From an uncultured Candidatus Saccharibacteria bacterium (GTDB lineage: Bacteria; Patescibacteriota; Minisyncoccia; Minisyncoccales; UBA5738), in the NCBI GenBank assembly GCA_964470995.1, contig CAYYEP010000003.1:16682-80681 (forward strand): a stretch of 64,000 nt of DNA, read 5' to 3'. The notes under the pieces are model-generated. The model was given only the letters and a program-made list of their open reading frames with translations, did not search any database and was not told the origin of the DNA. Positions 2,376-53,617 of this stretch are shown here, in pieces (within the stretch, counting starts at the first letter, position 1; every line of letters begins with the position of its first letter). Made by a program: the position numbers and the translations under genes.

Positions 2376-2430
2376 TGGGGTCGTTCCTCGATTTAATCGT
2401 TGAGGTGTGACCTCGGCAAATTCGTATTTT
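2376..2430. repeat. REP-like hairpin element (family member)
   Basis: gggtcgttcctcg-atttaatcg-ttgaggtgtgacctcggcaaattcgtatttt. Shares GGTCGTTCC...GGTG(C/T)GACC arms and the caaaYtYgtatttt tail with elements at 3801, 5209 and 53558. Confidence 0.7.
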
Positions 2431-2610
2431 ATCCTTATCTTTTCAGTGCTTGGTTGCGGGTGCAAATTTTATCCGGAAATTGATCCCTGACTTGTTTCTC
2501 GGAGCCAGCATTAAACCTAGCGGGATCAGGGTTCTTGAAGGATGATGAGTCTTCCTTGAAAGAAGGGTTTTTTTGTTCAATAATTAAAAATTATCCTACT
2601 AATCCGTAAA

Positions 2611-3741
2611 ATGGCAGACGATGTAAAAAAGGAAATATTCAGTATTGCGTTGCGCGCCGACATCGTCGCGCTTTTGCCGCGCAAGGTGCGCGCCGTTCTA
2701 AACGCTCTTGCCGGTGAACGCAACCTCCTTATCAAGGGCGGGATTGCCCGCTTGAGCCTGATGGCTCTAATCGAAAAGAAAGGTAAACTGGAAAACCCCA
2801 GCCGCCTTGATATCGAAAAGCGGATCGGAGATGTTGACCTGGCCTTCTGGCAATCCGGTTCGGGTCGCGATTTCCGGAGCGAATTGTGCCAAAAATATGC
2901 CGCCATTGCTCAAAAACTTTACGCGGTGGGCGTGGTTTTTGAGCCCAAGAACATCGATATTATCGATCTGGACGGAGGAAAGCCGCCCGTGGAAAAGATC
3001 TTTGATGCCACTGATCTGACTATCAATGAGGTTGCCCTGGGTTGTGAGGGCAATGTCTGGCGGATATATTACACAAGCCACGCTATCAAGCACATCGCCA
3101 CGGGTTGGGGCGTTTTTGTCCGCCCCAAACCGACCAATATCCGGACCGATGCCGGCCGCGTTTTTCCGTCGCCGCTGGGAATGGTGCGTCTGCTCAAATT
3201 CCTTGTTTCGGGCAAGGTTAAAAAGATTTACCTGCCGGTTCATTGGCGCAAGCTTTATTTTGCCGACTATGAGCGCAAGCTCAAAGAAGGGTTGCGCCAG
3301 CCCAATGCTCCGCTGGGTTTGCACTCGCTGGTCCTGATGAAAAATTACTTTGGTAATGACGACCGTCTGCAAAAAAAAGCGATGTTCGCGCTCTATGACC
3401 TTGGGTTCACTACGCTCCTGGATCCGGATCTTTTTATTCGCCAGCAGGAAGATATCTTTTCCCGGGCCAAGATGCGTTTTGAATTAAAAGACTTGGGATT
3501 TGATGATGTTTTTAATCGCTATCTGGAAGAAAAGAACCGCAAGTATCCGCAACGGCCTGCCGGCGCCGAACAATGCATGCATGTTTACGAACAAACCGCC
3601 TGCAATCTTTGCGGCAGGAGGGTTTGTGCTATCGAAGCTTGTAAGAACTGCGGTAAGGGCAAAAGCCGTCCGCCTATGGCCTGCACGGTCTGGATGCGCG
3701 AATGTCGCCTCGAACCTGAAGCTTTTTACGAAATAAAATAA
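2611..3741 (+). CDS. class II nucleotidyltransferase (CCA-adding/poly(A)-polymerase head domain)-like protein with C-terminal Cys-rich zinc ribbon; paralog 1
   Basis: 376 aa. GGIAR...DVDLAF (GG loop plus DxD). DLTINEVAL matches class II NTase motif B (RRDLTINA). SPLGMVRLLKFLV resembles motif D. C-terminus has about 8 Cys (CNLCGRRVCAIEACKNCG...C). Clear paralogy to 3972-5159. Confidence 0.55.
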   Translation: MADDVKKEIFSIALRADIVALLPRKVRAVLNALAGERNLLIKGGIARLSLMALIEKKGKLENPSRLDIEKRIGDVDLAFWQSGSGRDFRSELCQKYAAIAQKLYAVGVVFEPKNIDIIDLDGGKPPVEKIFDATDLTINEVALGCEGNVWRIYYTSHAIKHIATGWGVFVRPKPTNIRTDAGRVFPSPLGMVRLLKFLVSGKVKKIYLPVHWRKLYFADYERKLKEGLRQPNAPLGLHSLVLMKNYFGNDDRLQKKAMFALYDLGFTTLLDPDLFIRQQEDIFSRAKMRFELKDLGFDDVFNRYLEEKNRKYPQRPAGAEQCMHVYEQTACNLCGRRVCAIEACKNCGKGKSRPPMACTVWMRECRLEPEAFYEIK

Positions 3742-3752
3742 ATTTCATTTCT

Positions 3753-3776
3753 AAACCGGGATGTCCGGTTTTTTTA
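3753..3776 (+). terminator. intrinsic terminator
   Basis: aaccggg-atgt-cccggtt followed by a T-run. Confidence 0.55.
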
Positions 3777-3800
3777 TCTTATTTTCACCTGCCGTACGTT

Positions 3801-3862
3801 TGTATTTTAAGGTCGTTCCTATGCGTACTCGCATAGGTGCGACCTTGCCAAACTTGTATTTT
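3801..3862. repeat. REP-like hairpin element
   Basis: tgtattttAAGGTCGttcctatgcgtactcgcataggTGCGACCTTGccaaacttgtatttt. Nested inverted repeats with direct gtatttt flanks. Confidence 0.75.
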
Positions 3863-3971
3863 GGCCCACCTTCATCTCAACGACTATCCTTGACAAAATA
3901 ATCATAATGTGATATAGTAATGACGTTTTCAGTACCTACTAGAAAAAATACGTTAGGAGGGTTGATATCGA

Positions 3972-5159
3972 ATGGAAATCGTTAGGAATGTTAGGGCGGT
4001 AGAGCTGTCGAACGCAACCATTAAGAGCCTGCCGGAGAATGTCAGACTGATTCTGAAAGCCGTTGAGAATAATGGGCAAAAGGTCGCCCTGGTGAAGGGC
4101 GGCAACGCCAGATTCGTACTGATTCACCTGCTGAAGGAGAAGGGTCTCTTCGCCGATGAGCTTAGATACGGTATCGAAAGCTGTGTCAACGATCTGGACA
4201 TCTGCCTGCTTCGAACCGACAGCTGGGAAAAGCAATCCCAGATGCTCAAGGAAGCCGGTGAAGCGATCCAGAAGGCTTTGGCCGCATTCGAAGTGACTTT
4301 GGAACCCAAGGACACAGAGTTTGTCGCCGCCAATAATCTTCCCGACGCGGTCAGAAAGATATTGACCTCGAGGGACCTGACCATCAATGAGGTGGTCCTG
4401 GTCTATGAGAACGGGGGGTGGTTTGTCCACTACACCGCCGAGTGTGCCGAAGATCTGAGCGCCGGTATTGGATTCCTGAATCCCCGCGCCGGGCTGGTCT
4501 GGTATGTGTGCGGCAAGGTTATCCCGTCGCCACTGGGAATCGCCCGGTTGGCCAAGTACCTGGTCAATGGAAGGGTGAATAAGATAGTCTTCCCCGAGTA
4601 CTACAGGCAACTGTATCTCGAGGAGATTGGCCGCAGAGTCGAGGGCAAAGACCTTCCCACGGGAGCGCACAAACTTCCCGAGGGCGGATCGCTGGGGCTT
4701 TATAGCCTGGTGCTGATGAAGCTCTACTGTCAGGGGAACGACAGCCGGCGGCGGGCAATGAGGATACTCAAGGAGCTGGGTCTTACCGACCTGGATGGCC
4801 CCGCCGCCTACATCCGCGAACAGGAGCTTCTGTTCAAGATGTACGGCAAGGACTTCGAGCTTCTCGACCTGACCTGGGACGAGATCATTGCCAAGCAGAA
4901 GCAGAGCAATGAGATGGTCAACAACGGCCGCAAGATCCGCAAGGACGCGCGAGCCGCCTGCGAACATCAAATGGTTCCGCAAACCTGCCCGGGCTGCGGC
5001 AACCGGTGCCAGATCGAGAAATGCACCAAATGTACCCAGGTGAAGTTCAAAGCGCCCCTGCCTTGTGTCGCGGCCCTGTTCGCCGGCAAGACCATGTGGG
5101 ATGCGGGAATGAAGGGCATTTTCTATGCCCCTAATCTGCCCAAGTTGATGGAAGGCTAA
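3972..5159 (+). CDS. class II nucleotidyltransferase-like protein with C-terminal zinc ribbon; paralog 2
   Basis: 395 aa. GGNAR...DLDICLL, SRDLTINEVVL, SPLGIARLAKYLVNG, LGLYSLVLMK. C-terminal CPGCGNRCQIEKCTKCT...C. Collinear with paralog 1. Confidence 0.55.
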   Translation: MEIVRNVRAVELSNATIKSLPENVRLILKAVENNGQKVALVKGGNARFVLIHLLKEKGLFADELRYGIESCVNDLDICLLRTDSWEKQSQMLKEAGEAIQKALAAFEVTLEPKDTEFVAANNLPDAVRKILTSRDLTINEVVLVYENGGWFVHYTAECAEDLSAGIGFLNPRAGLVWYVCGKVIPSPLGIARLAKYLVNGRVNKIVFPEYYRQLYLEEIGRRVEGKDLPTGAHKLPEGGSLGLYSLVLMKLYCQGNDSRRRAMRILKELGLTDLDGPAAYIREQELLFKMYGKDFELLDLTWDEIIAKQKQSNEMVNNGRKIRKDARAACEHQMVPQTCPGCGNRCQIEKCTKCTQVKFKAPLPCVAALFAGKTMWDAGMKGIFYAPNLPKLMEG

Positions 5160-5208
5160 ATCAGTCTATTTCCATCTCTTTTTTGTTTTAGGCCGTTTTT
5201 AGATTTTT

Positions 5209-5263
5209 TTAAAGGTCGTTCCTATGTGTAATCACATAGGTGCGACCTTGACAACTTGCATTT
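5209..5263. repeat. REP-like hairpin element
   Basis: aaAGGTCGttcctatgtgtaatcacataggTGCGACCTTGacaacttgcattt. Near-identical arms to the 3801 copy with a different internal loop. Confidence 0.75.
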
Positions 5264-5514
5264 CTACCTCTAAGGCATTGCTTGACATTTTTCAAGGGTT
5301 TATCAATAATCTATGCCGAGGGTCCAAAATGGCCATATTGATAGGCAGAGCGGTACCAGCTAAGGGACGTCTCGAAAGAGATGTCTTTTATCGGCTTGGT
5401 GAGGAGGGTCCATTCCAACGAATCGGTACTCTGTATTTTTCCATCCGTTATCATTTGAATGGTAGTTGCGGTTCGCCGCCAAAGTTATATTATGAATTAT
5501 TAAACTCTCTCGCT

Positions 5515-6225: not shown

Positions 6226-6236
6226 ATTCGAATTAT

Positions 6237-7754
6237 TTGGGGAGGCGGGTAATGGTTTTGGCAAAAATTTTTTTGAATAACTGCCTGGCATTCCTGGCCG
6301 GGGTGGGGCTGGCTTCGTTGATTAAAATATCCTCGGTTTTGATTTTGGCCGCGGCATTTCTTGCCGCGTTTTTGTTCGCCGCCGGCCTCTTTGTCCGAAA
6401 ACGCCGGGTTTGCGTTGCCGGAATCCTGCTGGCCGGATTTGTTTCGGGTTTTTTGCATTTTGATTTAGCCTGGTTGCGGACGCTCAATAACGATTTGGCT
6501 CGGCTTTCCGGCCAAACAGTTGTTGTTTCGGGCATTGTTGTCAACGATCCGGTATCCAATGGCAATAGCCTGCAGTTGGTCTTTCTTCCCGATGGCGCCA
6601 GCGGTAAGATTCTGGTTTTAACCCGTCCGTATCCGCAATACCAATACGGCGACCGGTTAAAATTTACCGCCAAACTGGAAACGCCGCAAAGCTTCTCGGG
6701 TTTCGATTACCAAAACTATCTTACCAAAGACGGCATTTATTCTATGGTCCGTTATCCGGAGCTTGAATTGATTTCGCCGGATAACGGCAATCCGGTCTAT
6801 GCCGGATTGCTTTGGTTCAAGCATAAGCTTATGAATGGGATAGGACAGGCCTTGCCCGCGCCCCATAATTCGTTGCTTGTTGCCATTCTTTTTGGCGATC
6901 AAAGCGGTCTTTCCGGCTGTGCTGCCAAAGATACGGAAGCCGATCCTGATTGCGCCAAATTAAAAGAAAAGCTCAATATTTCCGGCCTGCGCCACTTGGC
7001 CGCGGTTTCCGGTACCCATATTACCATCATGGCCGGAATTATCGCGCCATTCTTGGTCTGGCTTGGGTTTTGGCGCCAAAAAGCACTTTTGGCCACGCTG
7101 GTTTTTATTTGGTGCTTTATTTTAATGATCGGCCTGCCCGCATCTGCGGTGCGGGCGGGAGTCATGGGTAGTTTAATTATCCTGGCTCAAATTATCGGCC
7201 GTCCCGCGGATTATCTGCGCCTGGTTGCCATCGCCGCCGCGTTTATGGTTGCCCAAAACCCTTTGATTTTGCGTTTTGATATCGGCTTCCAGCTGTCTTT
7301 TTTAGCGGTATTGGGTATGGCTTGTTTTGCCAAACCCATTGGGTTTAAATTGGGAAAATTCGTTAAAAAACCCGAATTCCTGCGTCAGGGTTTGGCGGTA
7401 ACCTTGGCGGCGCAAATCTTTACCTTGCCAGTTCTGGTTTATAATTTTGGCTATGTTTCTCCCTACGCGCCGATCAGCAATATTTTAGTCGAGCCGTTTG
7501 TGCCGTTTATTACGATTTACGGTTTTATTTTGGCGATTGCCGCCGCGTTCAATTTTATCTTGGGATGGCTGTTATTTTTTCCGATGTGGCTGGCGCTTTC
7601 ATATTTGCTTGTTGTTGCCGGCCTTTTTGCGTCTTTGCCTGGAGCCGCGCTGAATTTTAAGGTCGGATTTTTCTGGCTGGCGGTTTCGTATGTTCTTTTG
7701 GCTTTGGTTGCCCGGAAGATTAAAAGAAAAGAGAGGTTGGAATTTTTAAGATAG
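6237..7754 (+). CDS. comEC: ComEC/Rec2-family DNA internalization channel protein (DUF4131 plus competence domain; ends after the competence domain, no room for a C-terminal beta-lactamase domain)
   Basis: Multi-TM protein. N-terminal OB-like periplasmic region (VVVSGIVVNDP...GDRLKFTAKLETP). Competence-domain motif ISGLRHLAAVSGTHITIMAGI. Confidence 0.6.
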   Translation: MGRRVMVLAKIFLNNCLAFLAGVGLASLIKISSVLILAAAFLAAFLFAAGLFVRKRRVCVAGILLAGFVSGFLHFDLAWLRTLNNDLARLSGQTVVVSGIVVNDPVSNGNSLQLVFLPDGASGKILVLTRPYPQYQYGDRLKFTAKLETPQSFSGFDYQNYLTKDGIYSMVRYPELELISPDNGNPVYAGLLWFKHKLMNGIGQALPAPHNSLLVAILFGDQSGLSGCAAKDTEADPDCAKLKEKLNISGLRHLAAVSGTHITIMAGIIAPFLVWLGFWRQKALLATLVFIWCFILMIGLPASAVRAGVMGSLIILAQIIGRPADYLRLVAIAAAFMVAQNPLILRFDIGFQLSFLAVLGMACFAKPIGFKLGKFVKKPEFLRQGLAVTLAAQIFTLPVLVYNFGYVSPYAPISNILVEPFVPFITIYGFILAIAAAFNFILGWLLFFPMWLALSYLLVVAGLFASLPGAALNFKVGFFWLAVSYVLLALVARKIKRKERLEFLR

Positions 7755-16211: not shown

Positions 16212-16213
16212 TG

Positions 16214-16270
16214 TCTGTATTTCAAGGTCGGTCCTTGGTACTCGTATTTTTGCCAAGGTGCGGCCTTGGT
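16214..16270. repeat. REP-like hairpin element
   Basis: ctgtatttcAAGGTCGgtccttggtactcgtatttttgccaaGGTGCGGCCTTGG. Confidence 0.65.
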
Positions 16271-16292
16271 TTTAACTGTTTTTTTTAATCCA

Positions 16293-16345
16293 AAAAGGTC
16301 GGTCCTTGGCTTTGTAGGGACCGGCCTTTTTAAACTGCGTTTTTA
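16293..16345. repeat. REP-like hairpin element
   Basis: aaAAGGTCGGTCCttggctttgtaGGGACCGGCCTTtttaaactgcgttttt. Shares the aactgYgtttt tail with the 18411 and 53558 copies. Confidence 0.6.
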
Positions 16346-16389
16346 CTTTTTATGTCCCAGTTGTTATAATGTTGAAATAACTTGTCCGT

Positions 16390-17118: not shown

Positions 17119-17144
17119 TCTTCTGAATTTGTATCCCTGAAGTG

Positions 17145-17205
17145 TGTATTTTTAAGGTTGCACCCGGCGAAGTACGCCGAGGTGCCACTCTTATCGACTG
17201 TATTT
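17145..17205. repeat. REP-like hairpin element (divergent)
   Basis: gtatttttAAGGTTGCACCcggcgaagtacgccgaGGTGCCACtcttatcgactgtattt. Confidence 0.55.
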
Positions 17206-17363
17206 ACCCCGTTTTTTGAAATTGTGTTAAAATTATGTCCTATATTGTACTAATCTCAATGTGAATAGGACAATTATCTGCTATACTGATATAATTAATT
17301 ATTCTTAGAGGGATACATAATGAATTTTCGGGGCGGAGTGCGTCCCGAAAATCAAATTCGAAT

Positions 17364-18197: not shown

Positions 18198-18266
18198 CTG
18201 TATTCTGTATTTTAAAGGTAGCTCCTCGGCGGGCGTCGAGGAGCTAACTTGATAAGCTGTATTTAG
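18198..18266. repeat. REP-like hairpin element (divergent)
   Basis: ctgtattctgtattttAAAGGTAGCTCCTCGgcgggcgtCGAGGAGCTAacttgataagctgtattt. Confidence 0.5.
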
Positions 18267-18321
18267 ATTTGAGTCCATATTCCAGCGCACATTTTTTAGT
18301 TTTTTGTCAATATTGTTTTGC

Positions 18322-18350
18322 TTGTATTTTCGCTTAAAATGTGCTATAAT
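18322..18350 (+). promoter_or_regulatory. candidate sigma-70-type promoter with extended -10
   Basis: TTGTAT, then 17 nt, then tgcTATAAT (TGn extended -10). Lies upstream of the ECF sigma gene and is separated from it by two REP-like hairpins. Confidence 0.35.
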
Positions 18351-18410
18351 TAAAGTTAGGAGATAGTATCGCCCCACCCATATATTGAGTGGTATTCGGT
18401 GTTGTTTGCT

Positions 18411-18475
18411 GCGTTTTCAAGGTCGTTTCTCGGCACATCGTGTTTTTACCTGGGTGCGGCCTAAATAAACTGCGT
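18411..18475. repeat. REP-like hairpin element
   Basis: gcgttttcAAGGTCGtttctcggcacatcgtgtttttacctgGGTGCGGCCtaaataaactgcgtttc. Confidence 0.55.
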
Positions 18476-18477
18476 TT

Positions 18478-18540
18478 CAAGGTCATTTTTTTGGCAACTT
18501 GATAAAGGGTTGCAAAGCCTGACCTTGGGAAAACTTGAAT
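18478..18540. repeat. REP-like hairpin element (divergent)
   Basis: tcAAGGTCAtttttttggcaacttgataaagggttgcaaagccTGACCTTGGgaaaacttgaat. Confidence 0.45.
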
Positions 18541-18570
18541 TTCCCGATAGAAATAGGCGACTCGAAATCA

Positions 18571-20002: not shown

Positions 20003-20026
20003 AATTTGAATTGCATATTTCTAAAA

Positions 20027-20083
20027 TGGCTCCTCGGTAGCCTGTCCCAAGCTTATTGAAGGATGCTCATCGAGGTGTCAGTA
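20027..20083. repeat. degenerate REP-like hairpin
   Basis: ggctCCTCGgtagcctgtcccaagcttattgaaggatgctcatCGAGGTGTCAGtat. The CCTCG/CGAGG arms and the GGTGTCAG right arm resemble the family. Confidence 0.3.
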
Positions 20084-20381
20084 TGGAAAAATTAATTGCA
20101 TTCCGATTAAAGTATCTTAAAGCTTTCCGGGATTAACGAACCCGGTCAACATCAAGACTTGCTGATAAAGGAGTTTCCCGAACGGTTGGGAATATCCTTC
20201 GTCAGCAAGTCTGGCGTGAACCGAAAGGTTCATAAGTAGTCGTGGTTCTTGCGGCATCAAAGCTTTGGCCGGAAGAATGGGATTGGAAACGGTCCCGTAA
20301 ATGGTCGGCGCGACAATTAACAAAAGGACTATAATTTTAGTCCAGGTAAAAATAGGTCTTATTAGACCAAATAATTAAACA

Positions 20382-22406
20382 ATGTCTAGCAAGAAATTGA
20401 TCGCGGGCATGATTGCCTTTGCGATGGCTGTAGCCGTTGCGCCCAGCGCCAACGCCGCTACTGCCGAAGAACTGGCCGCTCAAATTGCTGCCCTTCAGAG
20501 CCAATTGGCTTCCCTGCAGGGTCAGCTTGGAACGACCACGGGAACGACTACCACAACCACGACCACTACCACGACTGGCACGACTTCGGTCGCCGCTTGC
20601 GCGGGTGTGACCTTTACGAGAAATTTGACTCTCGGTTCCACTGGCACCGATGTCAAATGTTTGCAAGCCCTGTTGAACGGCGATGTCGCGACCGCGGTTG
20701 CGGCCACGGGCGTCGGTTCAGCCGGAAATGAGACCGAGTACTTTGGTGGATTGACCAAGACTGCGGTTATCAAGTTCCAGAACAAGTACGCCGCCGAGGT
20801 TTTGACCCCGGTTGGATTGACTGCCGGCACCGGCTTTGTTGGTGCTTCGACCCGCGCTAAATTGAACGCGATGTTGGCGGGTACAACTACCACCACGACT
20901 GGTGATACTACCACCACGACTGGTGATACTACCACCACCACGACTGGTGATGGTGATGAAGGTGAGTTTACCGTAACCTTGAACTCGACCCCGGCCAACG
21001 GCCAGGATGCCGAGGAAGGCGAAAAAGGTGTTGCCGTAATGGGTCTCAAGATCAAAGCCACTGGCTCTGATATCGAAATCCAGCGCGTAACCTTGGCTTT
21101 CGATGCCAAGCCTTACACCTATTTCGACACGGTGTATTTGTATGATGGATCGACTGTGGTTGCCGAGGCTGACTTGGATTCCGATTCGGTTTCCAAGGTT
21201 GATTCTGACGACTATCGCATCACGATCTCCGGTTTCGAGAATAAATTCACTGTGGCCGAGGGCGCGACCAAGACCATGACGGTCAAGGTTGATGTCAAGG
21301 ATGGCCTCAAGGAATCTTATCTTGACGATACCGTTGCGATCCTTCTGCCGACCGACTCTGCCATTCGCGGTATCGATGAGGCTGGTTTGAATCAGTACGC
21401 CGGTGGTGCCGAGATCACTCGCCGCATCGACATGGCCACTGCCGCGGCCGATGATGCGAACCTGACCGTTAGCGCCAACGATGATACTCCGCTCGACCGC
21501 AACGTGATCGCCGATAACGGCGAGATCGAAGATGCCACTTTGTTGGTCTTCGATGTTGAGGCCGAGGACGACGATATCACGATCACCGACATCAACGATG
21601 TTGTGATCACCAGCGACGCCGCTTCTTCGACGATCGACACGGTTTATTTGTACAACGACAGCAACGAATTGATCGCCGAGTCAAATGTTGACGACGATGG
21701 CGAAGCTAACTTCGAAGATCTCGACGAGACCATTGAGGACGGCGACACCGCTACCTTCACGATCAAATTCGACAAGGATGTTGAGAACGATGATGATTTC
21801 GAGACTGGTATGACCGTGTACGCCACGGTTGACGCCGCCGGTATCGTTGCCGAGAACTCCGACGAGGATGAACTTGATGCCGATCAGTTGAATGGTGATG
21901 CTGCGGGCAACCTGGCTTACCTCTACAACGTTGGTCCTCAATTCACCATTTCGTCCATCACGACTTCCGAGATCCAAGCCACCGATAATACTGCCGCTGG
22001 CATTTCCGCGACCTTCAAGGTTGTGGTTGAAGCGATTGGCGGTGATATCTACCTGGCCAAGAAATCCGATTCCGAGAATTCGTTTGATGTCGAATACTCC
22101 ATTGACGACGCTGCCGGTGTGAATGCGGGTAGCATTACATACACCAAGCCGTCCGGAGCCACCGAAGTTTCCGGCACTGGCGATGTTGCGACCTTCTACG
22201 AGATCGAAGAGGGTGAGAGCCTGACCTTTACGGTCAATGCCACTCAAACCGTTACAACCGATGGTTATTACGATTTGAGAATGGCGGGCATCTCCTGGAC
22301 TGATGCTCTCGACACTGATACTGCCGATATGGTTTCTTCCACCTATATGGATGGCCAGGACGAGTGGATCAGCGACGCCGAGTATCTTCAGGCTGCCGGA
22401 TCCTAG
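20382..22406 (+). CDS. secreted protein: signal peptide, Thr-rich linkers, peptidoglycan-binding-like domain, long Asp/Glu-rich C-terminal region
   Basis: Signal peptide MSSKKLIAGMIAFAMAVAVAPSANA. Poly-T tracts. PG_binding_1-like helix bundle (DVKCLQALLNG...GGLTKTAVIKFQNKYAAEVLTPVGLTAGTGFVGASTRAKLNAML), shared with the C-terminus of 28380-30167. Very acidic repetitive C-terminal half. Confidence 0.6.
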   Translation: MSSKKLIAGMIAFAMAVAVAPSANAATAEELAAQIAALQSQLASLQGQLGTTTGTTTTTTTTTTTGTTSVAACAGVTFTRNLTLGSTGTDVKCLQALLNGDVATAVAATGVGSAGNETEYFGGLTKTAVIKFQNKYAAEVLTPVGLTAGTGFVGASTRAKLNAMLAGTTTTTTGDTTTTTGDTTTTTTGDGDEGEFTVTLNSTPANGQDAEEGEKGVAVMGLKIKATGSDIEIQRVTLAFDAKPYTYFDTVYLYDGSTVVAEADLDSDSVSKVDSDDYRITISGFENKFTVAEGATKTMTVKVDVKDGLKESYLDDTVAILLPTDSAIRGIDEAGLNQYAGGAEITRRIDMATAAADDANLTVSANDDTPLDRNVIADNGEIEDATLLVFDVEAEDDDITITDINDVVITSDAASSTIDTVYLYNDSNELIAESNVDDDGEANFEDLDETIEDGDTATFTIKFDKDVENDDDFETGMTVYATVDAAGIVAENSDEDELDADQLNGDAAGNLAYLYNVGPQFTISSITTSEIQATDNTAAGISATFKVVVEAIGGDIYLAKKSDSENSFDVEYSIDDAAGVNAGSITYTKPSGATEVSGTGDVATFYEIEEGESLTFTVNATQTVTTDGYYDLRMAGISWTDALDTDTADMVSSTYMDGQDEWISDAEYLQAAGS

Positions 22407-22537: not shown

Positions 22538-22587
22538 TTTGTGCAAGGTCGCACCTTGCACAAATTGTGCAAGGTGCGACCTTGCAA
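22538..22587. repeat. REP doublet (perfect 50-nt palindrome) at the 5' flank of the RAYT gene
   Basis: TTTGTGCAAGGTCGCACCTTGCACAAATTGTGCAAGGTGCGACCTTGCAA. The two arms are exact reverse complements. Confidence 0.85.
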
Positions 22588-22628
22588 TACTTGCCAAAAC
22601 TATTGTCTTTGCTTATTATTGCGATAAT

Positions 22629-23423
22629 ATGCCAAACCTTACTCGTAATTTTGCTATCGGCGATATTTATCATATCTTTAATCGTGGAGTAGAGAAGCGC
22701 GCCGTTTTTATGGATAACTCCGATTACTACCGCTTCGTTTTTTCGCTGTATGAATGTAACGACGAAACTGCGGTTCGGGTTGGCCAGCGTATAATTGAGC
22801 GCCGCCAAAGAAATACCAACAAAGCAAGTTCTGCAAGGTCGCACCTTGCAAGCTTGCAAGGTGCGACCTTGCAGAATTCAGAAGCGCACAAGAGAGAGCT
22901 GTTGGTTGAAGTCGTGGCTTTTACCCTGATGCCTAACCACTATCATCTAATTCTGCGCCAATTGGTTGACGGCGGCATTTCGCTATTTATGAAAAAATTA
23001 GGCAATGCCTATACCGGATATTTTAATGAGCGGCATGAACGTAAAGGGATGGGAGCTCTTTTTCAGGGACGTTTTAAGGCGATACGTATTGCCGATGACC
23101 GGCAATTTTTGCACCTGGCCGAGTATTTGTTTTCAAACCCTGTCGAAATCCTGGAACCGGACTGGAAGCTGGGCGGCGTCCGGGACCCCGCCGCCGCAAT
23201 TGATTTTTTAAATAATTATAAATGGTCAAGCTATTTGGATAGTATCGGTATGAAAAATTTTCCTTCCGTTACCGATCGGGATTTTTTGTGGAAAGTATTC
23301 GCTGGTTCCACGGACGAGCGGAAGGGGAGGTGTCGCGTCAAAGAATTCACCGAAGCCTGGATCAAGAATAAATCAACACTGTTTTCCGGCATTGCTATTG
23401 CTCAAAAAATATCTTTTGATTAG
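22629..23423 (+). CDS. REP-associated tyrosine transposase (RAYT; IS200/IS605-like Y1 HuH transposase, Transposase_17 family)
   Basis: YHIFNRGVEKRAVF N-terminal strand. HuH motif in LMPNHYHLIL. YTGYFNERHERKG and FQGRFKAIRIADD. Catalytic Tyr motif AEYLFSNPVE about 63 aa after HuH. The ORF-track start at 22539 lies inside the REP palindrome, so the Met at 22629 is preferred. Confidence 0.8.
   Translation: MPNLTRNFAIGDIYHIFNRGVEKRAVFMDNSDYYRFVFSLYECNDETAVRVGQRIIERRQRNTNKASSARSHLASLQGATLQNSEAHKRELLVEVVAFTLMPNHYHLILRQLVDGGISLFMKKLGNAYTGYFNERHERKGMGALFQGRFKAIRIADDRQFLHLAEYLFSNPVEILEPDWKLGGVRDPAAAIDFLNNYKWSSYLDSIGMKNFPSVTDRDFLWKVFAGSTDERKGRCRVKEFTEAWIKNKSTLFSGIAIAQKISFD
22831..22874. repeat. REP doublet inserted in-frame inside the RAYT coding sequence
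   Basis: CTGCAAGGTCGCACCTTGCAAGCTTGCAAGGTGCGACCTTGCAG is translated as SSARSHLASLQGATLQNS without breaking the ORF. Confidence 0.8.
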
Positions 23424-23427
23424 TTGA

Positions 23428-45664: not shown

Positions 45665-46417
45665 ATGGAAAACAAAAAAAATTCGCTAAATAAAGATTAC
45701 GATGAGATTGACTTGCGCGACGTGGCTGATGTGTTAGTCAAACGAAAAAAGATTATTATATTTTGCACCCTCGCGGCATTGGGTGTCGCGCTGGCCGCAA
45801 GCTTAATGATGCCCAAAATATATCGTGTTCAAACGGCCCTGGAAATAGGGACGGTCGATGGGGGTGTTTTGGTGGAAAGTATTGTTCAGATAAAAGACCG
45901 GGTTGATCGGGGATACTACTCGGAATTTCTTAAAAAAGAAGATACCGCGATATATCCGATAAAAACCGCCAATACCGCTGGCAGCGATATTATTACGCTC
46001 GCCGTTGAATCGCCCGACCGGGAGAGCGCGTTAAGTTTTCTTGAAAATATCGGCCAAATGATTATTGCGGAGCATAATAAATTAACTACGGCGCGCCGTC
46101 AATTTATTGACAGCCAAATTGCCGCCGCCGAATTCAACAGCAAAGACATTTCCGCAAGTATTAAAGCTCCCAGCCAGGAATGTTCCGCGGAAAAATATCT
46201 GGCGATTAATAATTTGGAGTCACATATTCTTAATCTTAAATTTGTTAGAACCCAAATCACCGATACCGCGATAGCGGGCGCGTCGGCGGCGCCGGAGACT
46301 CCGGTAAAACCCAATATTAAATTAAATGCGGTTATGGCCGCAATCTTGGGGCTGTTCTTCGGGGTTTTTGCTGTTTTATTTGGCAATTGGTGGCGGGAAA
46401 GCGGGATGACAAAATAG
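45665..46417 (+). CDS. Wzz-like polysaccharide chain-length determinant (PCP family)
   Basis: N-terminal TM (IIIFCTLAALGVALAASLMM). C-terminal TM (AVMAAILGLFFGVFAVLFG). Periplasmic coiled-coil-like middle. Confidence 0.45.
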   Translation: MENKKNSLNKDYDEIDLRDVADVLVKRKKIIIFCTLAALGVALAASLMMPKIYRVQTALEIGTVDGGVLVESIVQIKDRVDRGYYSEFLKKEDTAIYPIKTANTAGSDIITLAVESPDRESALSFLENIGQMIIAEHNKLTTARRQFIDSQIAAAEFNSKDISASIKAPSQECSAEKYLAINNLESHILNLKFVRTQITDTAIAGASAAPETPVKPNIKLNAVMAAILGLFFGVFAVLFGNWWRESGMTK

Positions 46418-46448
46418 GAAAGCATAAAATAGGTTGGGCAAGATGCAG

Positions 46449-46498
46449 TTTGTGCAAGGTCGCACCTTGCAAGCTTGCAAGGTGCGACCTTGCACAAA
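46449..46498. repeat. REP doublet (palindrome) inside the polysaccharide operon
   Basis: TTTGTGCAAGGTCGCACCTTGCAAGCTTGCAAGGTGCGACCTTGCACAAA. Lies between the Wzz-like gene and the ligase-like gene. Confidence 0.85.
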
Positions 46499-46515
46499 AG
46501 CTAAATAGCATAGTT

Positions 46516-48489
46516 ATGGAGAATAAGGGGATAATAAATTTTATAAAACTCGGGATATTTGCCGCGCTATTGACGCCGTTGATCAAGCACGCGGAGTTTT
46601 ATTTTCCTTATGTGGGTCCCAAAAGCATTTATTTTATGGCCTTGGCCGAATTGGTGTTCTTCGCCTGGGTCATTTTGGCCTGGCGCTGGAAGCAATACCG
46701 GCCCGATCTAAAAAACCCGCTTGTTATCGCCATTCTTGCCTCTTTGGCGGTATCGTTTGCCAGCGCGGCCGCCGGCGCCAATTTTTTGGTAAGTTTTTGG
46801 TCGAAGTTCGAGCGCATGGGCGGTATATTGATGTTTTTTCACCTCGTTGCGTTTACGCTCGCAGCCGCTTCAGTGATGGAAAGGACCGATTGGCGCCGCT
46901 TTTTTTACGCCACCGTCGCCATCGCTTCATATGTTGCTCTGGCGGCATTCTTCGATAAAAGCAACGGCGCTAATGAAGGGGGATTGATCGGCAATAATTC
47001 TTTCTGGGGTACTTATATTTTGTTTAATATTTTCTTCGCGCTTTACCTTTTTGTTTCCGCCCCTCGCCATGATTATAAAACAAAAGGCTTTGCCGCCGCC
47101 GCTTTTATGGCAATGGCGGCAAGCCTGATGCTGGTGGGAACTCGGTATTTGGCGTATATGGCCGGATCGGGAGAAGCACCGGCCGCAAGCCTTTTGGCCG
47201 ATATTTTTGGCACCGGCGCCCGGGCCGCCAAATTATCGCTGGTAGGGGGTATGCTATTGTTCTCCCTGCTTTGGTTTTCTTTCTCGAAGAGCCGCGCGGT
47301 TAAGCTTGCCAGCCGTCTTTTATTGGTCGCCGCTACTTCCTGCGGTGTGGTGCTGGTTGCGATGGCGCTTCAGCCCGGTAGTCAAGTTTATCGGTTTGCG
47401 GTCGAAAAGTTCAACCAATCTACGGTTCAGGGCCGCCTCGTCGTTTGGGAAATCGGTTGGAAGGGCTTTGTGGAACGCCCCCTGCTTGGTTGGGGCCCGG
47501 AAAACTTCAATCTGGTGTTCGCGCGCTATTTTAATCCCTGTATCGGATCGCCGGAATGCACCGGCGAAATTTGGTTTGATCGCGCGCACAATGTTGTCGT
47601 CGATACTCTGGTTGAGACCGGTGCCATCGGTTTAGCTGCTTATTTGGCGATCTTTGCGGCCGCGCTCTGGCTTTTATGGCAGCCGGTTTTCAAAAATGGG
47701 CAGGGTCTGGCCGAAGCTTCGGTAATTACGGCGTTGTTTGCGGCTTACTTTGTTCAAAACCTGACAGTTTTTGATATGGTGGTCAGTTATTTAATGTTTT
47801 TTATCTGTTTGGCGTTCATTATTTCGCGCGGCGCCGAAAAGCCGGCCGCTAAATACGCAGCTCCCTTGCCGGTAGTGTCCAAAATGGCGATTGCCGCCGC
47901 CGGTATGTTATGTTTTTATTTTTTTGTGGTTGGGCCGTTCCGAACCGATTATGGCGCGGTGGCCGCGGCTAAAGCCGTTTATGGTAGCGATCAGCGCATC
48001 GAGCTTAGCCGGAAAGCGTTAGCCGCGTCTCCTGTAGGCCGCGACCAGATAAGGAATTTCTTTGCCAAACAGTGGATTGTGGCAATGCAAAATGAAAAAG
48101 TTTTAAAAATCTTAACCGTCGGCGCCGCCGCGAAAAATTTTACTTACCTTGCTCAAGAACTGGAAAAAAGCCGCGCCGAATCGCCACTGAATCTGCAGGT
48201 ACGCCTGCGTCTGGCCGAGCTTTATAACTCATGGGGCTTGATCGACCAAAAAAAACTTATTCTCGCCGAAGAGGTTTTAAGCGAAGCCCATGATTTATCA
48301 CCCCAAAACCAGCAATATTATCTTGAGCTGGCGCAAACACGAATAGAACAGGCTCGCCTGGAAGACGCCCATTCCCTGATAAAACAGGCAAAAGATATTT
48401 ACTCCGCAAACCCGAACGTAAATGCTTCCTTGGAAAAAATCGAAAAGATTATAGACACTGCGTCTGCCGCCAAAACTCCAAAACAATGA
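46516..48489 (+). CDS. O-antigen ligase-like polytopic membrane protein with C-terminal TPR-like domain
   Basis: Multi-TM N-terminal about 440 aa. Soluble helical-repeat C-terminus. The ORF-track start at 46387 reads through the REP, so the Met at 46516 is preferred. Confidence 0.45.
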   Translation: MENKGIINFIKLGIFAALLTPLIKHAEFYFPYVGPKSIYFMALAELVFFAWVILAWRWKQYRPDLKNPLVIAILASLAVSFASAAAGANFLVSFWSKFERMGGILMFFHLVAFTLAAASVMERTDWRRFFYATVAIASYVALAAFFDKSNGANEGGLIGNNSFWGTYILFNIFFALYLFVSAPRHDYKTKGFAAAAFMAMAASLMLVGTRYLAYMAGSGEAPAASLLADIFGTGARAAKLSLVGGMLLFSLLWFSFSKSRAVKLASRLLLVAATSCGVVLVAMALQPGSQVYRFAVEKFNQSTVQGRLVVWEIGWKGFVERPLLGWGPENFNLVFARYFNPCIGSPECTGEIWFDRAHNVVVDTLVETGAIGLAAYLAIFAAALWLLWQPVFKNGQGLAEASVITALFAAYFVQNLTVFDMVVSYLMFFICLAFIISRGAEKPAAKYAAPLPVVSKMAIAAAGMLCFYFFVVGPFRTDYGAVAAAKAVYGSDQRIELSRKALAASPVGRDQIRNFFAKQWIVAMQNEKVLKILTVGAAAKNFTYLAQELEKSRAESPLNLQVRLRLAELYNSWGLIDQKKLILAEEVLSEAHDLSPQNQQYYLELAQTRIEQARLEDAHSLIKQAKDIYSANPNVNASLEKIEKIIDTASAAKTPKQ

Positions 48490-48610: not shown

Positions 48611-49498
48611 ATGGAATCAACTTCTATAAAAACAAACGAAATATTGGCTAATCATTGCACTTACCGCATTGGCGGCCCGGCAAAGTGTTATTTTAGCGCG
48701 GCTGGCGAAGACGAGGTTGCCGCCAGTTTGGAAGTTGCCCGCGAAAACAACCTGCCCTTTTTTATTCTTGGGGGAGGTAGCAATGTTTTGTTTTCCGATG
48801 AAGGATTCCCGGGAATGGTGGTAAAAATGGATAATAATTCCATCGATGCCCGCGACAATGGGGAAAAAACTACTGTTATTGTCGGCGCCGGCACTCCGTT
48901 GGCCGCGCTGGTAAAATTCACCCGTGATAATTCTCTTACCGGAATGGAATGGGCCGCCGGGATTCCGGGGACCGTGGGCGGTGCCATCCGCGGCAACGCC
49001 GGCGCTTTTCATCATGAAGTGGGGGAAAGTGTTTTAAAGGTGCGCGTTCTGCAGGTTGTTGCCGCCGGAATCGAAACCAGACTGTTTCAAAAAAACGATT
49101 GTGCGTTCGCATATCGCAACAGCGCGTTCAAGTGCAACAAAAATCTGGTGATTGTTTCGGCCGCACTGTCGTTTGACAAGGGGGATCCGCGAAAGATCGA
49201 ATCCGAAATTCAAGAGTATCTTGCCAAAAAAAATACCACCCAGCCGCTGGACCATCCATCGGCCGGTTCAGTGTTCGCCAACCCCGAAGGTTTTTTCGCG
49301 GGTAAGATTATTGAGGAATGCGGCTTCAAAGGTAGGGTTGTCGGCGGCGCCAAGGTTTCAGAAAAACACGCCAATTTTATCGTCAATCTGGGCGGTGCGA
49401 CTGCCGCCGATGTTAAAAAGATTATTTCTTTGATTAAAAAATCCGCCCAGGAAAAATTCGGCGTTAACCTGGAAGAAGAAATCGAGATCGTGCGATAA
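48611..49498 (+). CDS. murB: UDP-N-acetylenolpyruvoylglucosamine reductase
   Basis: FAD-binding domain (CTYRIGGPAKCYF...FFILGGGSNVLFSDEGFPGMVV). C-terminal MurB domain. Confidence 0.8.
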   Translation: MESTSIKTNEILANHCTYRIGGPAKCYFSAAGEDEVAASLEVARENNLPFFILGGGSNVLFSDEGFPGMVVKMDNNSIDARDNGEKTTVIVGAGTPLAALVKFTRDNSLTGMEWAAGIPGTVGGAIRGNAGAFHHEVGESVLKVRVLQVVAAGIETRLFQKNDCAFAYRNSAFKCNKNLVIVSAALSFDKGDPRKIESEIQEYLAKKNTTQPLDHPSAGSVFANPEGFFAGKIIEECGFKGRVVGGAKVSEKHANFIVNLGGATAADVKKIISLIKKSAQEKFGVNLEEEIEIVR

Positions 49499-49542: not shown

Positions 49543-49560
49543 GTTATTAAAGCCGAAATT

Positions 49561-49607
49561 TTACTTAAGTATATACTTAGTATATACTAAGTATATACTT
49601 AACTTAA
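49561..49607. repeat. three tandem copies of the 12-nt palindrome AAGTATATACTT
   Basis: ttacttAAGTATATACTTagtatatactAAGTATATACTTaacttaa. Candidate operator array. Confidence 0.7.
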
Positions 49608-49778
49608 AAAAATATTTCCCAGTTATTTTTTTTTAGTTTTCCACACTTGACAAACTTGTATGAAGTGAAAAAATAATATTAGGATACTGTAAAATTTTTT
49701 TAAAAAATTTTTCAAGTATCCAACGGTCGAAAATTTTTTTAAAAAAATAACGGACCGCAAAATGGTCCGGCAAAAAAA

Positions 49779-50461: not shown

Positions 50462-50809
50462 ATGAATATTATAATCCGGACAAAAAATATCGAAATGACC
50501 CCGACGTTGCGCGAATTCATCGAGACGAAGATAGGTTCCATAGAAAAATACTGCCGTGATTGCCAGGTTGACGACCAGCCGGGGCTGACGGCGGCCGCCG
50601 AAGCCATTGTGGAGGCGGGCAAGGACACTTTGCATCACAAAAAAGGCGACGTCTATACGGCACAGTGTCAGTTTACTTTTAACGGCAATAAAGTTTTGGC
50701 CCGCACCGAAGCCGATGACCTGGAAAAAGCAGTCACCGCGGTTCGCGATGATCTGCAGGACCAATTGACCCGCCTAAAAGGCAAACGCCTTGATAAAAAT
50801 AGAAAATAA
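50462..50809 (+). CDS. hpf: ribosome hibernation promoting factor (HPF/RaiA/YfiA family)
   Basis: MNIIIRTKNIEMTPTLREFIETKIGSIEKY is a typical HPF N-terminus. About 115 aa. The upstream part of the track ORF (50270-) is unlikely to be coding. Confidence 0.7.
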   Translation: MNIIIRTKNIEMTPTLREFIETKIGSIEKYCRDCQVDDQPGLTAAAEAIVEAGKDTLHHKKGDVYTAQCQFTFNGNKVLARTEADDLEKAVTAVRDDLQDQLTRLKGKRLDKNRK

Positions 50810-51105
50810 TGAAAATGTTCCATCGAGGTGGTTGGTAGTGAAAAGGTATTTTGTAATAAATGCCATCGGGAAGTATTTAATCCTGGTTGGTATGAGAAAT
50901 GCCCCCATTGCGAAGGAAAGGTGAAAGCAATTTAAAAAGGGGTGCGCCAGAAGCGCAACCCCTTTCTTTTTTTTGTAATTCCACTACAATATAAAATTCG
51001 GCGATTTATGAACCGCGATTTGTGATTTAAAAATTATAACGCGGTATTTTATATTTATTCATAAAACATAATTCATAAATCATAAATCAAGCATTTAGAT
51101 TAGAT

Positions 51106-53538
51106 ATGTCTTTTTTAACCAAAATTTTCGGCGACGAAAATAAAAATTACTTTAAGAAACTCCAGCCCGACGTGGACGCGATCAATGCCCTGGAACCGGA
51201 GTTCAAGGCGCTTGACGACGTCGGTTTGCTTGCCAAAACCGCCGAGTTCAAGGAGCGGCGGGCGAAAGGGGAGGCGCTCGACAGCCTGATGCGCGAAGCT
51301 TTTGCCTTAGTGCGCGAAGCGGCTCGGCGTAATTTGGGCCAGCGGCATTTTGACGTCCAGTTGATGGGTGGCATTGTCCTGCACCAGGGCAAAATCGCGG
51401 AGATGCGCACCGGCGAAGGCAAGACTTTGACCGCGACCTTGTCCGTATATTTAAACGCCTTATCAGGATTAGGCGTGCATTTGGTGACGGTCAACGATTA
51501 TCTGGCCCGCCGCGACGCGGTTTGGATGGGCCAGGTTTACCACGCACTGGGTCTTTCGACCGGTTGTATTAACCACGACCAGTCATTTGTCTATGATCCG
51601 GAATATAAAAAAGCCCAGGAAAGCGAAGATACCATGCGCGATAACTTAGGTTCGTTCCATGTGTCGCAGGATTTTTTGCGTCCCTGCAGCCGCCGCCAGG
51701 CTTACGCGGCCGATATTACTTATGGCACCAACAATGAGTTTGGTTTCGACTATTTGCGCGACAATATGGTTTATCGCATCGAGGATCGCGTTCAGCGCGA
51801 ACCAAATTACGCAATTGTCGACGAGGTTGATTCCATTTTGATCGATGAAGCCCGCACTCCTCTCATAATTTCGGCACCCGACGAGGAAAGCTCCAAATGG
51901 TACCAGGATTTCGCGCGTATCATTCCGCAGTTGAAGGAAAAGGAAGATTACGAAGTTGACGAAAAAGACCGCGCCTCCACGCTAAGCGAGAATGGCATCG
52001 TCAAAGTGGAAAAGATAATGGGGGTGGATAACATATATGAAGAGAAGGGCGTTAAATACCTGCACCATCTGGAACAGGCCCTGCGCGCCCAGGCGCTTTA
52101 CCGTGCGGACCGCGATTATGTGGTCAAAGACGGCCAGGTCATCATTATTGACGAATTCACGGGTCGTTTAATGCCCGGGCGGCGGTGGTCGGGCGGCCTG
52201 CATCAGGCCATTGAAGCTAAAGAGGGCGTCCAGGTAAAACCCGAATCGCTGACGCTGGCGTCCATTACTTTCCAAAACCTTTTTAGAATGTACAAAAAAC
52301 TGGCGGGAATGACCGGTACGGCCATTACGTCGGCCGAAGAATTTGATAAAGTTTACAGCCTCGACTCGATTCCTATCCCGACCAACAAATCCATTAGCCG
52401 CGTCGATCTGCCCGACCGGGTTTACAAAACCGAAACCGCCAAATATAACGCCGTGGTGGCCGAGATCAAAGATCGTTCTAGTAAGGGCCAGCCGGTGCTG
52501 GTCGGCACCCGCTCGGTGGAAAAAAATGAATATTTAACCAAACTTCTTGAGCGGGAGGGCATTAAACACGAGGTTTTGAACGCCAAGAACCACGAACGCG
52601 AAGGCGAGATCATTGCCCAAGCGGGAAGCCTTGGCGCGGTGACGATCGCTACCAATATGGCCGGCCGCGGCGTCGATATTCTTTTGGGCGGCAATCCTCC
52701 CGAACCGCAGAGCGTCCAAAAGGTGCGCGATGCCGGCGGTTTGTTTATTATTGGCACCGAGCGCCACGAAGCCCGCCGCATCGACAACCAGCTGCGGGGC
52801 CGCGGCGGCCGCCAGGGCGATCCGGGTACAACCCAGTTCTTCATCTCTCTCGAGGACGACCTCCTGCGCATTTTTGGCGGCGAACAGATGAAAAAACTTA
52901 TGGATATGCTCAAGGTTCCCGAGGACCAGCCGATCGAATCGGGAATGCTTTCCAAGCGCATCGAAGAAGCCCAAACCAAGATCGAGGGTATGCATTTTGA
53001 CACCCGCAAGCACCTGCTGGACTATGATAGCGTGATGAATAAACAGCGCGAGGTAATCTATAAAAAACGCGTCGATATTCTGAATATGGCCGATGAACAG
53101 GTTCGCGGGTATATTACAGAATTAGCCGCCAAGGGCGAGGCGGCCGAAAAATATTTGGAACGGGAAAAGGAAAACGGTGTCGAAGCCATGGTTCGCGCGG
53201 CGCGCTTCATCGCTCTCAAAACAATCGATTTTTTCTGGCAGGAGCATTTGGAATTGATGGACAATGTGCGCGATTCGGTGCGTCTGCGCGCCTACGGTCA
53301 GCAGGATCCTTTGGTTGAATATAAAAATGAAGCCAATAAGCAGTTTCGCATCCTTTTGGATACCGTGGAAGCCAACATTCTGCAGAATATTTTAAACGTT
53401 ACGATTAATAAGAATGTAACTGCTTCTGCTCCCGTGGCCGCCAGTTCCGGACCCACTGCCGATTACGGTAAGGTTGACCGCAATGCCCCTTGTCCGTGCG
53501 GCAGCGGCAAAAAATATAAGAAATGCTGCGGCAAATAA
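51106..53538 (+). CDS. secA: preprotein translocase ATPase SecA
   Basis: 810 aa. Walker A (MRTGEGKTL). [17 protein letters not shown] motif. C-terminal zinc motif [14 protein letters not shown]. Confidence 0.93.
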
Positions 53539-53557
53539 AAAATATTCACCCCGTAAC

Positions 53558-53617
53558 CGTATTTTGAGATCGTACCTCGGCGTAATCGCCGAGGTGCGAT
53601 CTCGGCAAACTCGCATT
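53558..53617. repeat. REP-like hairpin element
   Basis: cgtattttgaGATCGTACCTCGGCGtaatCGCCGAGGTGCGATCtcggcaaactcgcattt, followed by aactgtttttttt. Confidence 0.7.

Follow-up and report, generated by a model that had tools for sequence, protein, structure and literature searches.

A 64 kb stretch of DNA from an uncultured Candidatus Saccharibacteria bacterium (contig CAYYEP010000003.1), referred to here as the window, contains ten copies of a short hairpin repeat. The ten copies probably make up a non-autonomous family of DNA hairpins, similar to repetitive extragenic palindromic (REP) sequences and their doublet form (REPINs), that is tied to a gene for a REP-associated tyrosine transposase (RAYT), a transposase of the Y1 HUH type. 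All positions are given in window coordinates.

Each unit consists, in order, of GYATTT(T), a hairpin of about 17 bp, GGCAAACTT and GYATTTT, and can be written as AAGGTCGTTCC–variable stem-loop–GGTGCGACCTT–GGCAAACTT–GYATTTT. Three perfect palindromes with the same hairpin arms (TGCAAGGTCGCACCTTGCA ... TGCAAGGTGCGACCTTGCA) are located upstream of the RAYT-like gene, inside it and, as a solo copy, at 46449. A first-pass annotation, made from the sequence alone, had claimed that the repeats and these long palindromes share a core, and this is real (AAGGTCG[CA/TT]CCT ... AGGTGCGACCTT). Arms of 11–13 nt are all that the ten abundant copies have in common with the palindromes. The copies had been regarded as REP singlets with an internal insertion, and are better described as asymmetric derivatives of a doublet (REPIN-like) palindrome. 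The two arms of a copy are the two inverted half-sites of the palindrome, the left arm having a conserved TT where the palindrome has CA, a replacement that produces an internal T·G plus T/T mismatch. In the related genome L244, the copy after the gene for a trypsin-like protein has the flanks of the repeat around a palindrome-type core, and thus connects the two forms. By analogy with known REP/REPIN–RAYT systems, we infer that the repeats are mobilized by the RAYT and depend on it.

Ten hairpin copies and a strand-specific constraint

All of the copies listed in the first-pass annotation are present, on the + strand, intergenic and at or within a few bases of where it had placed them. The architecture was also as described, namely a T-rich GYATTT, an AAGGTCG/CGACCTT base, an inner CC/GG pair block, a variable stem-loop and the tail GNCAAACT-YGYATTT. 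A covariance model, R1, was built from 20 sequences (the ten window copies and ten foreign copies) and the whole window was scanned with filters off. The ten copies scored 42–79 bits on the + strand, the copy at 18478–18540 scoring 36.5 bits when searched alone, and the only other R1 matches in the 64 kb were the three long palindromes. As the R1 training set included the window copies, an independent model, R2, was built from 28 metagenome copies, none of which came from the window. Nine of the ten copies were recovered by R2, all on the + strand and with E from 5e-17 to 3e-3. The only one missed was the copy at 18478–18540, for which the R1 score of 36.5 bits is that of a training-set member. 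The window contains AAGGTCG 21 times (7.0±2.8 expected from shuffles) and TGTATTT 27 times (11.4±3.3 expected), and nine of the latter flank copies.

For each copy, the extent is given below with its core and its R1 and R2 scores. The copy at 2365–2438 (core 2377–2414, GGGGTCGTTCC...GGTGTGACCTC, 3′ tail GGCAAATTCGTATTTT; 65.5 and 53.6 bits) lies 92 nt past the NrdD stop codon, behind a canonical terminator. A canonical terminator (3753–3771) also precedes the copy at 3797–3870 (core 3809–3846; 71.6 and 71.4 bits), which has a perfect TTGTATTTT on either side. The core of the third copy, at 5200–5273 (core 5212–5249; 78.7 and 71.1 bits), differs from the core at 3809 in little beyond one compensatory pair (ATGCG/CGCAT to ATGTG/CACAT), and each of these two cores follows one of two paralogous genes that are 34 % identical. 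The paralogues (2611–3741 and 3972–5159) are adjacent, have no known function and no Pfam match, and each includes a C-terminal cysteine-rich motif.

A tandem pair is formed by the copy at 16212–16293 (core 16224–16267, with a longer apical loop; 53.9 and 37.8 bits), 13 nt past the stop codon of the trypsin-like gene, and the copy at 16294–16352 (core 16295–16328; 42.0 bits, and 23.0 bits with E 0.0016). The fold of the second is −22.8 kcal/mol, and it is the most terminator-like copy because TTTTT directly follows the stem. The copy at 17142–17215 (core 17154–17191, AAGGTTGCACC...GGTGCCACTCTT; 43.0 and 22.5 bits) has TGTATTT on both sides, and there is an intact copy in the same gap in L244. 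The next copy, at 18203–18274 (core 18215–18250, AAGGTAGCTCC...GGAGCTAACTT, with CTGTATTT on both sides; 58.5 and 45.3 bits), is 21 nt past the stop codon of a DeoR-like gene and has an orthologous copy in L244 (3141–3214). Upstream of a sigma-factor gene there is a second tandem pair, of which the first copy is at 18407–18487 (core 18419–18462, with CTGCGTTT on both sides; 48.7 bits, and 22.1 bits with E 0.0028). Its partner at 18467–18552 (core 18479–18526; 36.5 bits, without an R2 match) is diverged and has the 5′ boundary motif in common with it; a common boundary motif is a feature of the tandem pairs.

The last copy is at 53554–53627 (core 53566–53603, GAGATCGTACC...GGTGCGATCTC; 73.2 and 67.7 bits), 28 nt past the SecA stop codon, and has two compensatory changes in the basal stem. 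A 7.9-kb contig, L001 (Logan SRR8925805), has two differences from the window, a contig-end artefact aside. One of them is position 53573, in the T·G wobble of the SecA hairpin, which is T in the window and C in L001.

A further, degenerate copy had been proposed at 20027–20083. On its own, this sequence is not significant (7.9 bits with R1). Its position is orthologous to that of an intact L244 copy (7364–7437), and the segment at 20011–20107 (+ strand) is probably a decayed relic. The total is thus ten copies and one relic, all between genes. Seven of the copies begin 13–92 nt past a stop codon. The annotation was also correct that all copies are 3′ of co-directional genes, though with all real genes of the window on the + strand this carries no information.

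A test for compensatory changes supports the hairpin. In the 20-sequence alignment, double changes are found in 13 of the 17 pairs, and 87 % of the cells are paired, against 79 % in column shuffles and 43–45 % with slid partners. The observation that arms are kept while the internal loop differs therefore stands, with conserved arms and a covarying variable apex. There is also a conserved internal mismatch, a T·G wobble (14 of 20 sequences) with an unpaired T/T at the next position (15 of 20), which makes the element asymmetric, with GTTCC in the 5′ arm and GGTGC in the 3′ arm.

The two strands were compared using 61 metagenome copies whose core has the standard length of 38 nt. For all 61 full hairpins, the fold of the given strand is better than that of the complementary strand. 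For the apical stem alone, the given strand is better in 50, worse in eight and equal in three, and the mismatches in this stem are G·T in 40 cases and A·C in eight. As the top strand folds better than its complement and G·T outnumbers A·C, the structure matters in the single-stranded top strand, either as single-stranded DNA or as sense RNA. The hairpin is thus shown to be under a constraint specific to one single strand.

The T and C variants of the GYATT motif are not concordant between the 5′ and 3′ sides in the 23 informative copies. The flanks that had been noted as direct gtatttt repeats are accordingly a conserved motif present on both sides, not target-site duplications.

The RAYT-like gene and its palindromes

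A mechanical open reading frame (ORF) at 22539–23423 conceals the 264-aa gene for the RAYT-like Y1 HUH transposase, which begins at 22629 (22629–23423, + strand). The protein includes the HUH motif NHYHL and the tyrosine motif YLFSNP. It has a weak match to Y1_Tnp in Pfam (E 6.7e-6), and its sole NCBIfam match is REP_Tyr_transpos, at 40 bits and hence below the cut-off of 80. Among PDB sequences, the sole match was 4ER8, the Escherichia coli TnpA-REP. When the AlphaFold model (predicted local distance difference test score 81) was used in Foldseek, 4ER8 was again the best PDB match (E 2e-4, TM 0.63 on target), ahead of the TnpA of IS608 and ISDra2. Among named relatives, the closest belong to Paceibacterota, Nealsonbacteria and other Patescibacteria.

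Homologues in L244, L246 and L003 are 72 %, 62 % and 70 % identical, respectively. The window, L244 and L246 have a common gene order, consisting of genes for ClpB, the trypsin-like protein, an LTD protein, the DeoR-like protein, the sigma factor, a DUF5667 protein, a protein of about 700 aa and the RAYT, and in L003 the end of the gene upstream of the RAYT gene is the same as in the window. There is one copy of the gene in the 64 kb. Judged from these sequence comparisons, the gene behaves as a RAYT gene and not as an insertion sequence, its syntenic locus being the same throughout the related genomes.

The first of the perfect doublet palindromes (22542–22586, TGCAAGGTCGCACCTTGCACAA/TTGTGCAAGGTGCGACCTTGCA, inverted repeat I4, with 100 % complementarity) is found 43 nt upstream of the RAYT start codon, and there is a hairpin at the same position in L244, L246 and L003. 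The second (22829–22876, inverted repeat I2) is in frame within the RAYT coding sequence, where it encodes the peptide ARSHLASLQGATLQ, and 36 nt of it are identical in L003. Just past the RAYT stop codon, a degenerate single REP-like half-site (TTGTGCAGGGGTAGGCTTGCAGA, 23427–23452, + strand) can be read from the sequence; intact hairpins are found at this position in L244, L246 and L003. The solo perfect doublet palindrome (46449–46498, inverted repeat I1, 25+25 nt, 100 % complementary) is of the RAYT-flanking type, and is located between a Wzz-like gene (45665–46417) and the Wzy_C domain (residues 268–420) of the ORF at 46387–48489. It is intergenic only if the true start of this ORF is downstream of its TTG, and a candidate ATG is found at approximately 46526.

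Hairpins upstream of, inside and downstream of the RAYT gene were found in the window and in L244, L246, L003, L121 (a Nealsonbacteria genome) and L203 (with a homologue that is 30 % identical). The three sites of a genome have a common stem, which differs from one genome to another. It is GCAAGGT-CGC-ACCTTGC in the window, L003 and L246; L244 has the same stem with the loop TTC/GAA at all three sites; and the stems of L121 and L203 are ATACACGG/CCGTGTAT and TTGCGTGGGT/ACCCACGCAA, respectively. A distant homologue, in L197, has the same long hairpin, GTTGAAATCAAATATCAACA...TGTTGATATTTGATTTCAAC, on both sides (~480–560 and ~1280–1350).

The loop of the in-frame hairpin encodes an x-x-G-x-T-x-x motif in 105 of 120 RAYT homologues. 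Reverse-complementary codons are present on both sides of the G-x-T in 99 of these 105, compared with 29±4 in shuffles. The peptide encoded by the hairpin (residues 67–85) is a low-confidence coil in the model and is predicted to be a disordered loop. The hairpin in the coding sequence is family-wide. That a nucleic-acid structure shapes the protein sequence of an entire family is unusual.

Copies in other genomes

The hairpin family is not confined to the genome from which the window comes, spans several Patescibacteria lineages and is common both in genomes of this group and in metagenomes. A genome collection was scanned with the pattern AAGGTCGN{16,36}GGTGCGACCTT, which proved insufficiently specific; of the 119 loci found, the majority are chance matches in high-GC coding DNA. 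The real matches are all in Patescibacteria metagenome-assembled genomes (MAGs), except for one MAG labelled only 'bacterium', and the Patescibacteria include several Saccharibacteria, Paceibacterota, Minisyncoccales, Parcubacteria and unclassified members. Many more copies were found outside the window, including those from a tighter pattern scan of metagenomes, which yielded at least 120 loci; the outcome that the first-pass annotation had named as a refutation, an absence of further copies, is thus not what was observed. The matches listed include 114 distinct copies, which were sorted by a simple pattern rule, with a few long-apex or chance coding matches mis-sorted. Of these listed copies, 82 are of the window type, with TCGNNG-TAAT-CNNCGA as the typical inner stem, GGCAAACTTGYATTTT as the 3′ tail and GYATT located 6–8 nt before the stem, and 32 are of a longer variant with GAGGAGGAG in the apex. 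Rfam 15 gave no match in the window at gathering thresholds and none at E≤1 in four loci bearing variants.

One related contig has up to four copies by the exact pattern in 13 kb, and six or more by the model. L244 has copies in the gaps where the window has them, namely those following the trypsin-like, LTD, DeoR-like and DUF5667 genes and that preceding the sigma-factor gene. Same-gap copies in the window and L244 are heavily diverged, with the hairpin kept. No dispersed copies were found in 20 kb of L246, where a plain terminator follows the trypsin-like gene. In L130, two identical 47-nt units are found at different loci of the contig, the identity extending from AAGG to ...CAACTG. L244 also includes a hairpin-less 'footprint', TGTATTTAAGGACTGCCAACTTGTATTTT, and runs of YTGYAT(T) heptamers around its copies (3380–3440, 6270–6440 and 7430–7470).

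The longer variant (AAGGTCGTTCCTYGAGGAGGAG...CGACGGRARAGGTGCGACCTT, with cgggaa/GAGGAG flanks and a variable outer stem) is found in frame inside real genes, namely those for LeuRS (twice), the HsdM type I methylase (several), UvrC, AlaRS, a reverse transcriptase and an intein-bearing protein. The loci are L109 (1974–2020), L141 (2588–2634), L173, L182, L198, L220, L225, L231, L228, L217 and L166. In L154, L159, L165, L140, L131, L234 and others, outer inverted repeats (approximately ACTCACTGGGG ... CCCCAGTGAGT) surround the whole unit. Exact outer repeats of at least 8 nt are present in 10 of the 82 metagenome copies, compared with 3.6 expected, and the window copies are without outer inverted repeats. 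This suggests a larger composite element of about 130 nt in some lineages.

Three further features were noted. A non-coding stretch of about 230 nt (~20150–20380) upstream of the gene for a 674-aa protein (20382–22406) includes a long hairpin (inverted repeat 20155–20212). It is kept in L244 (~7440–7690) and L246 (~7470–7710), whereas other intergenic DNA differs widely. No Rfam match to it was found at gathering thresholds, and its possible identities are a structured leader and a hitherto undescribed RNA. At 18290–18400 (L244 ~3270–3370), between repeat copies and upstream of the sigma-factor gene, a promoter-like TTGTCA-17-TATAAT is followed by about 70 conserved bases that include AGGAG...CCACCCATATATTGAGTGG. 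This could specify a small transcript or a leader, ending at the hairpin copies or extending into them. Between the genes for MurB (48611–49498) and a ribosome hibernation factor, A+T-rich palindromes are clustered at 49559–49760 (TTTTACTTAAGTATATACTTAGTAT/ATACTAAGTATATACTTAACTTAAA and overlapping T7A6-type repeats) and are unrelated to the hairpin family.

Alternative readings and related systems

The strand specificity of the fold, with its G·U pairs on the sense strand, and the placement of seven window copies shortly past stop codons would also be expected if the hairpins were primarily RNA elements at gene 3′ ends, acting as terminators, attenuators or stabilizers that block exonucleases, if selection for that role conserved them, and if the resemblance to the RAYT palindromes reflected only their origin. 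We consider this unlikely. A role as terminators or attenuators, proposed in the first-pass annotation, has little in its favour. A simple terminator scan flagged none of the copies (1–20 kb list), and the copies at 2377 and 3809 are behind canonical terminators. The T-run directly after the stem at 16294–16352, seen in this copy only, does fit a terminator, but in the consensus tail (GGCAAACTTGYATTTT) the T-rich motif is found from about 9 nt past the stem. The copies are not canonical terminators.

Orientation bears on the same question. Among metagenome copies within 70 nt downstream of a stop codon (ORFs of at least 150 aa), 24 are sense and eight antisense, and this roughly threefold excess makes a secondary role at RNA 3′ ends possible. 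In both L132 and L199, each of two convergent genes is followed by its own sense copy, but under cruder gene calls numerous metagenome copies have the antisense orientation relative to adjacent genes or lie between divergent ones. Copy orientation splits 27–29 versus 16 by both GC skew and majority gene strand, and because the two give the same split, replication and transcription are inseparable as its cause. Retention of the hairpin in the diverged orthologous copies of the window and L244 agrees with a function in RNA, but the syntenic relative L246 does without any copies. Moreover, a fixed 11-nt arm and a conserved mismatch would be superfluous for a terminator or stabilizer, and suggest recognition by a protein.

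Integron attC-type recombination sites, which are folded single-strand hairpins with conserved bases and extrahelical residues at the 3′ ends of co-oriented cassettes, are similar in form only, having a conserved basal stem, an asymmetric mismatch, a variable apex, single-strand specificity and a position 3′ of genes. Here, the flanks are direct GYATTT repeats and not the inverse attC core sites RYYYAAC/GTTRRRY, and the neighbouring genes are not cassettes but housekeeping genes (NrdD, ClpB, SecA) whose synteny is conserved across genomes. No tyrosine recombinase was found among approximately 20 Pfam-scanned ORFs adjoining copies or palindromes, the associated enzyme being a Y1 HUH transposase. 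An attC identity is very improbable and, as both flanks and gene content contradict it, was rejected.

CPR (Candidate Phyla Radiation) bacteria are thought to depend on DNA uptake, and uptake signal sequences for natural competence are often found as inverted pairs after genes, a position resembling that of the copies. They are, however, 9–12 nt long, occur about once per kb in both orientations and also inside genes, whereas the AAGGTCG excess is almost wholly due to 13 long hairpins, nearly all between genes, and the constraint acts on pairing and on one strand; on this distribution and pairing constraint, the uptake-sequence reading was rejected as the least credible of those considered.

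Several observations also weigh against a REP/REPIN–RAYT-type system. The window copies are mutually diverged (mean column identity 49–60 %), and no 'master sequence' of many identical copies is present in the 64 kb. The canonical REP 5′ GTAG is absent, the 5′ flank being a T-rich GYATTT(T/A), although the imperfect palindrome that is a feature of REPs is present. No transposition event, empty donor or empty target site was seen. In 20 kb each of L246 and L121, the RAYT gene and its flanking hairpins are intact and there are no dispersed copies. Conversely, in L203 a dispersed AAGGTCG-type copy lies 3.3 kb from a distant RAYT gene with quite different hairpins. In L244, the three RAYT-attached loops are TTC/GAA while the dispersed copies keep CG../GCG, and since the loop change is not matched in the dispersed copies, the link to the RAYT is by shared sequence and neighbourhood and not by proven co-evolution. 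Finally, for the 24 to 8 excess of sense copies and the convergent genes that each have a sense copy, an RNA role is at least as good an explanation as a replication-strand bias.

A REP/REPIN–RAYT-type system is nonetheless the reading that we prefer. The signs that bear on mobility are indirect, namely the identical units in L130, the tandem pairs, presence or absence between syntenic genomes, and the in-frame insertions in genes. In such a system, the top strand would fold when single-stranded, for example as the template for lagging-strand synthesis; the + strand of the window is G-rich and bears all the genes. The RAYT would bind the folded hairpin, as TnpA-REP and the TnpA of the IS200/IS605 family do, and would cut and rejoin at the flanking GYATTT motifs, slowly duplicating units, at times in tandem. 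Copies would persist chiefly in the short gaps past stop codons, where they are tolerated, and some may have been co-opted as hairpins at RNA 3′ ends.

The hallmarks of REP/REPIN–RAYT systems have been described for Proteobacteria (PMC5581495; bioRxiv 10.1101/2021.07.10.451892). In the E. coli REP and bacterial interspersed mosaic elements with TnpA-REP, and the Pseudomonas REPINs with Group 2 and 3 RAYTs, as here, there are short extragenic hairpins at about one per 5–6 kb, and doublet palindromes made up of two inverted half-sites. A Y1 HUH gene flanked by palindromes, occupying the same extragenic gap across relatives, single-copy as far as seen and vertically inherited, is common to both, as is the persistence of copies at orthologous sites, and the best fold match of the window protein is TnpA-REP itself (4ER8). 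The differences are that the host is a member of the Patescibacteria (CPR), and that the protein is distant (40 bits against the cut-off of 80), with a C-terminal extension of about 90 residues. There is no 5′ GTAG, with GYATTT on both sides instead. The abundant form is asymmetric, with its apex replaced and the T·G and T/T mismatch conserved, and is not a perfect doublet. The RAYT gene holds an in-frame hairpin copy in its coding sequence, and the arm sequence is common to several CPR lineages and not species-specific.

Members of the IS200/IS605 family and the miniature elements derived from them (PATEs) also have a Y1 HUH transposase gene with subterminal hairpins on both sides. Their hairpins are specific to the top single strand and include mismatches, there is no target-site duplication, and a conserved short motif beside the hairpin is a possible cleavage or target site. 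In contrast to these elements, the gene found here is at a fixed syntenic locus and not multi-copy, no TnpB was seen beside it, and the dispersed units are a single hairpin without distinct left and right ends. Rickettsia palindromic elements (RPEs) resemble this family in being palindromes in frame within genes, as seen here in the RAYT gene and, for the GAGGAGGAG variant, in those for LeuRS, HsdM, UvrC and AlaRS. However, RPEs are longer (~100–150 bp) and unrelated in sequence, and the ten window copies are all intergenic. We know of no transposase associated with RPEs.

A literature search covering a limited set of papers turned up no account of a REP/RAYT system from CPR bacteria. In the papers on RAYTs and REPINs that were consulted, REPIN-associated RAYTs are described from proteobacterial genera only, and neither the CPR nor a hairpin inside the RAYT gene is mentioned. 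A more far-reaching proposal, which we put forward tentatively and regard as somewhat doubtful, is that an ancient and mostly vertically inherited REPIN–RAYT partnership extends across the Patescibacteria, with a recognition hairpin in frame in the RAYT gene, in-frame insertions into essential genes, and an asymmetric form co-opted as a strand-specific module at gene ends. The in-frame RAYT hairpin would then possibly serve in self-regulation or in homogenization with the flanking hairpins.

If CPR bacteria, whose genomes are tiny and gene-dense, do have a related system, REP/RAYT systems would have a wider known host range. Whether such repeats are tolerated parasites or useful parts could then be addressed in a second, independent lineage. 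For biochemical work, the system would supply a compact substrate made up of a single hairpin, one conserved mismatch and two GYATTT motifs.

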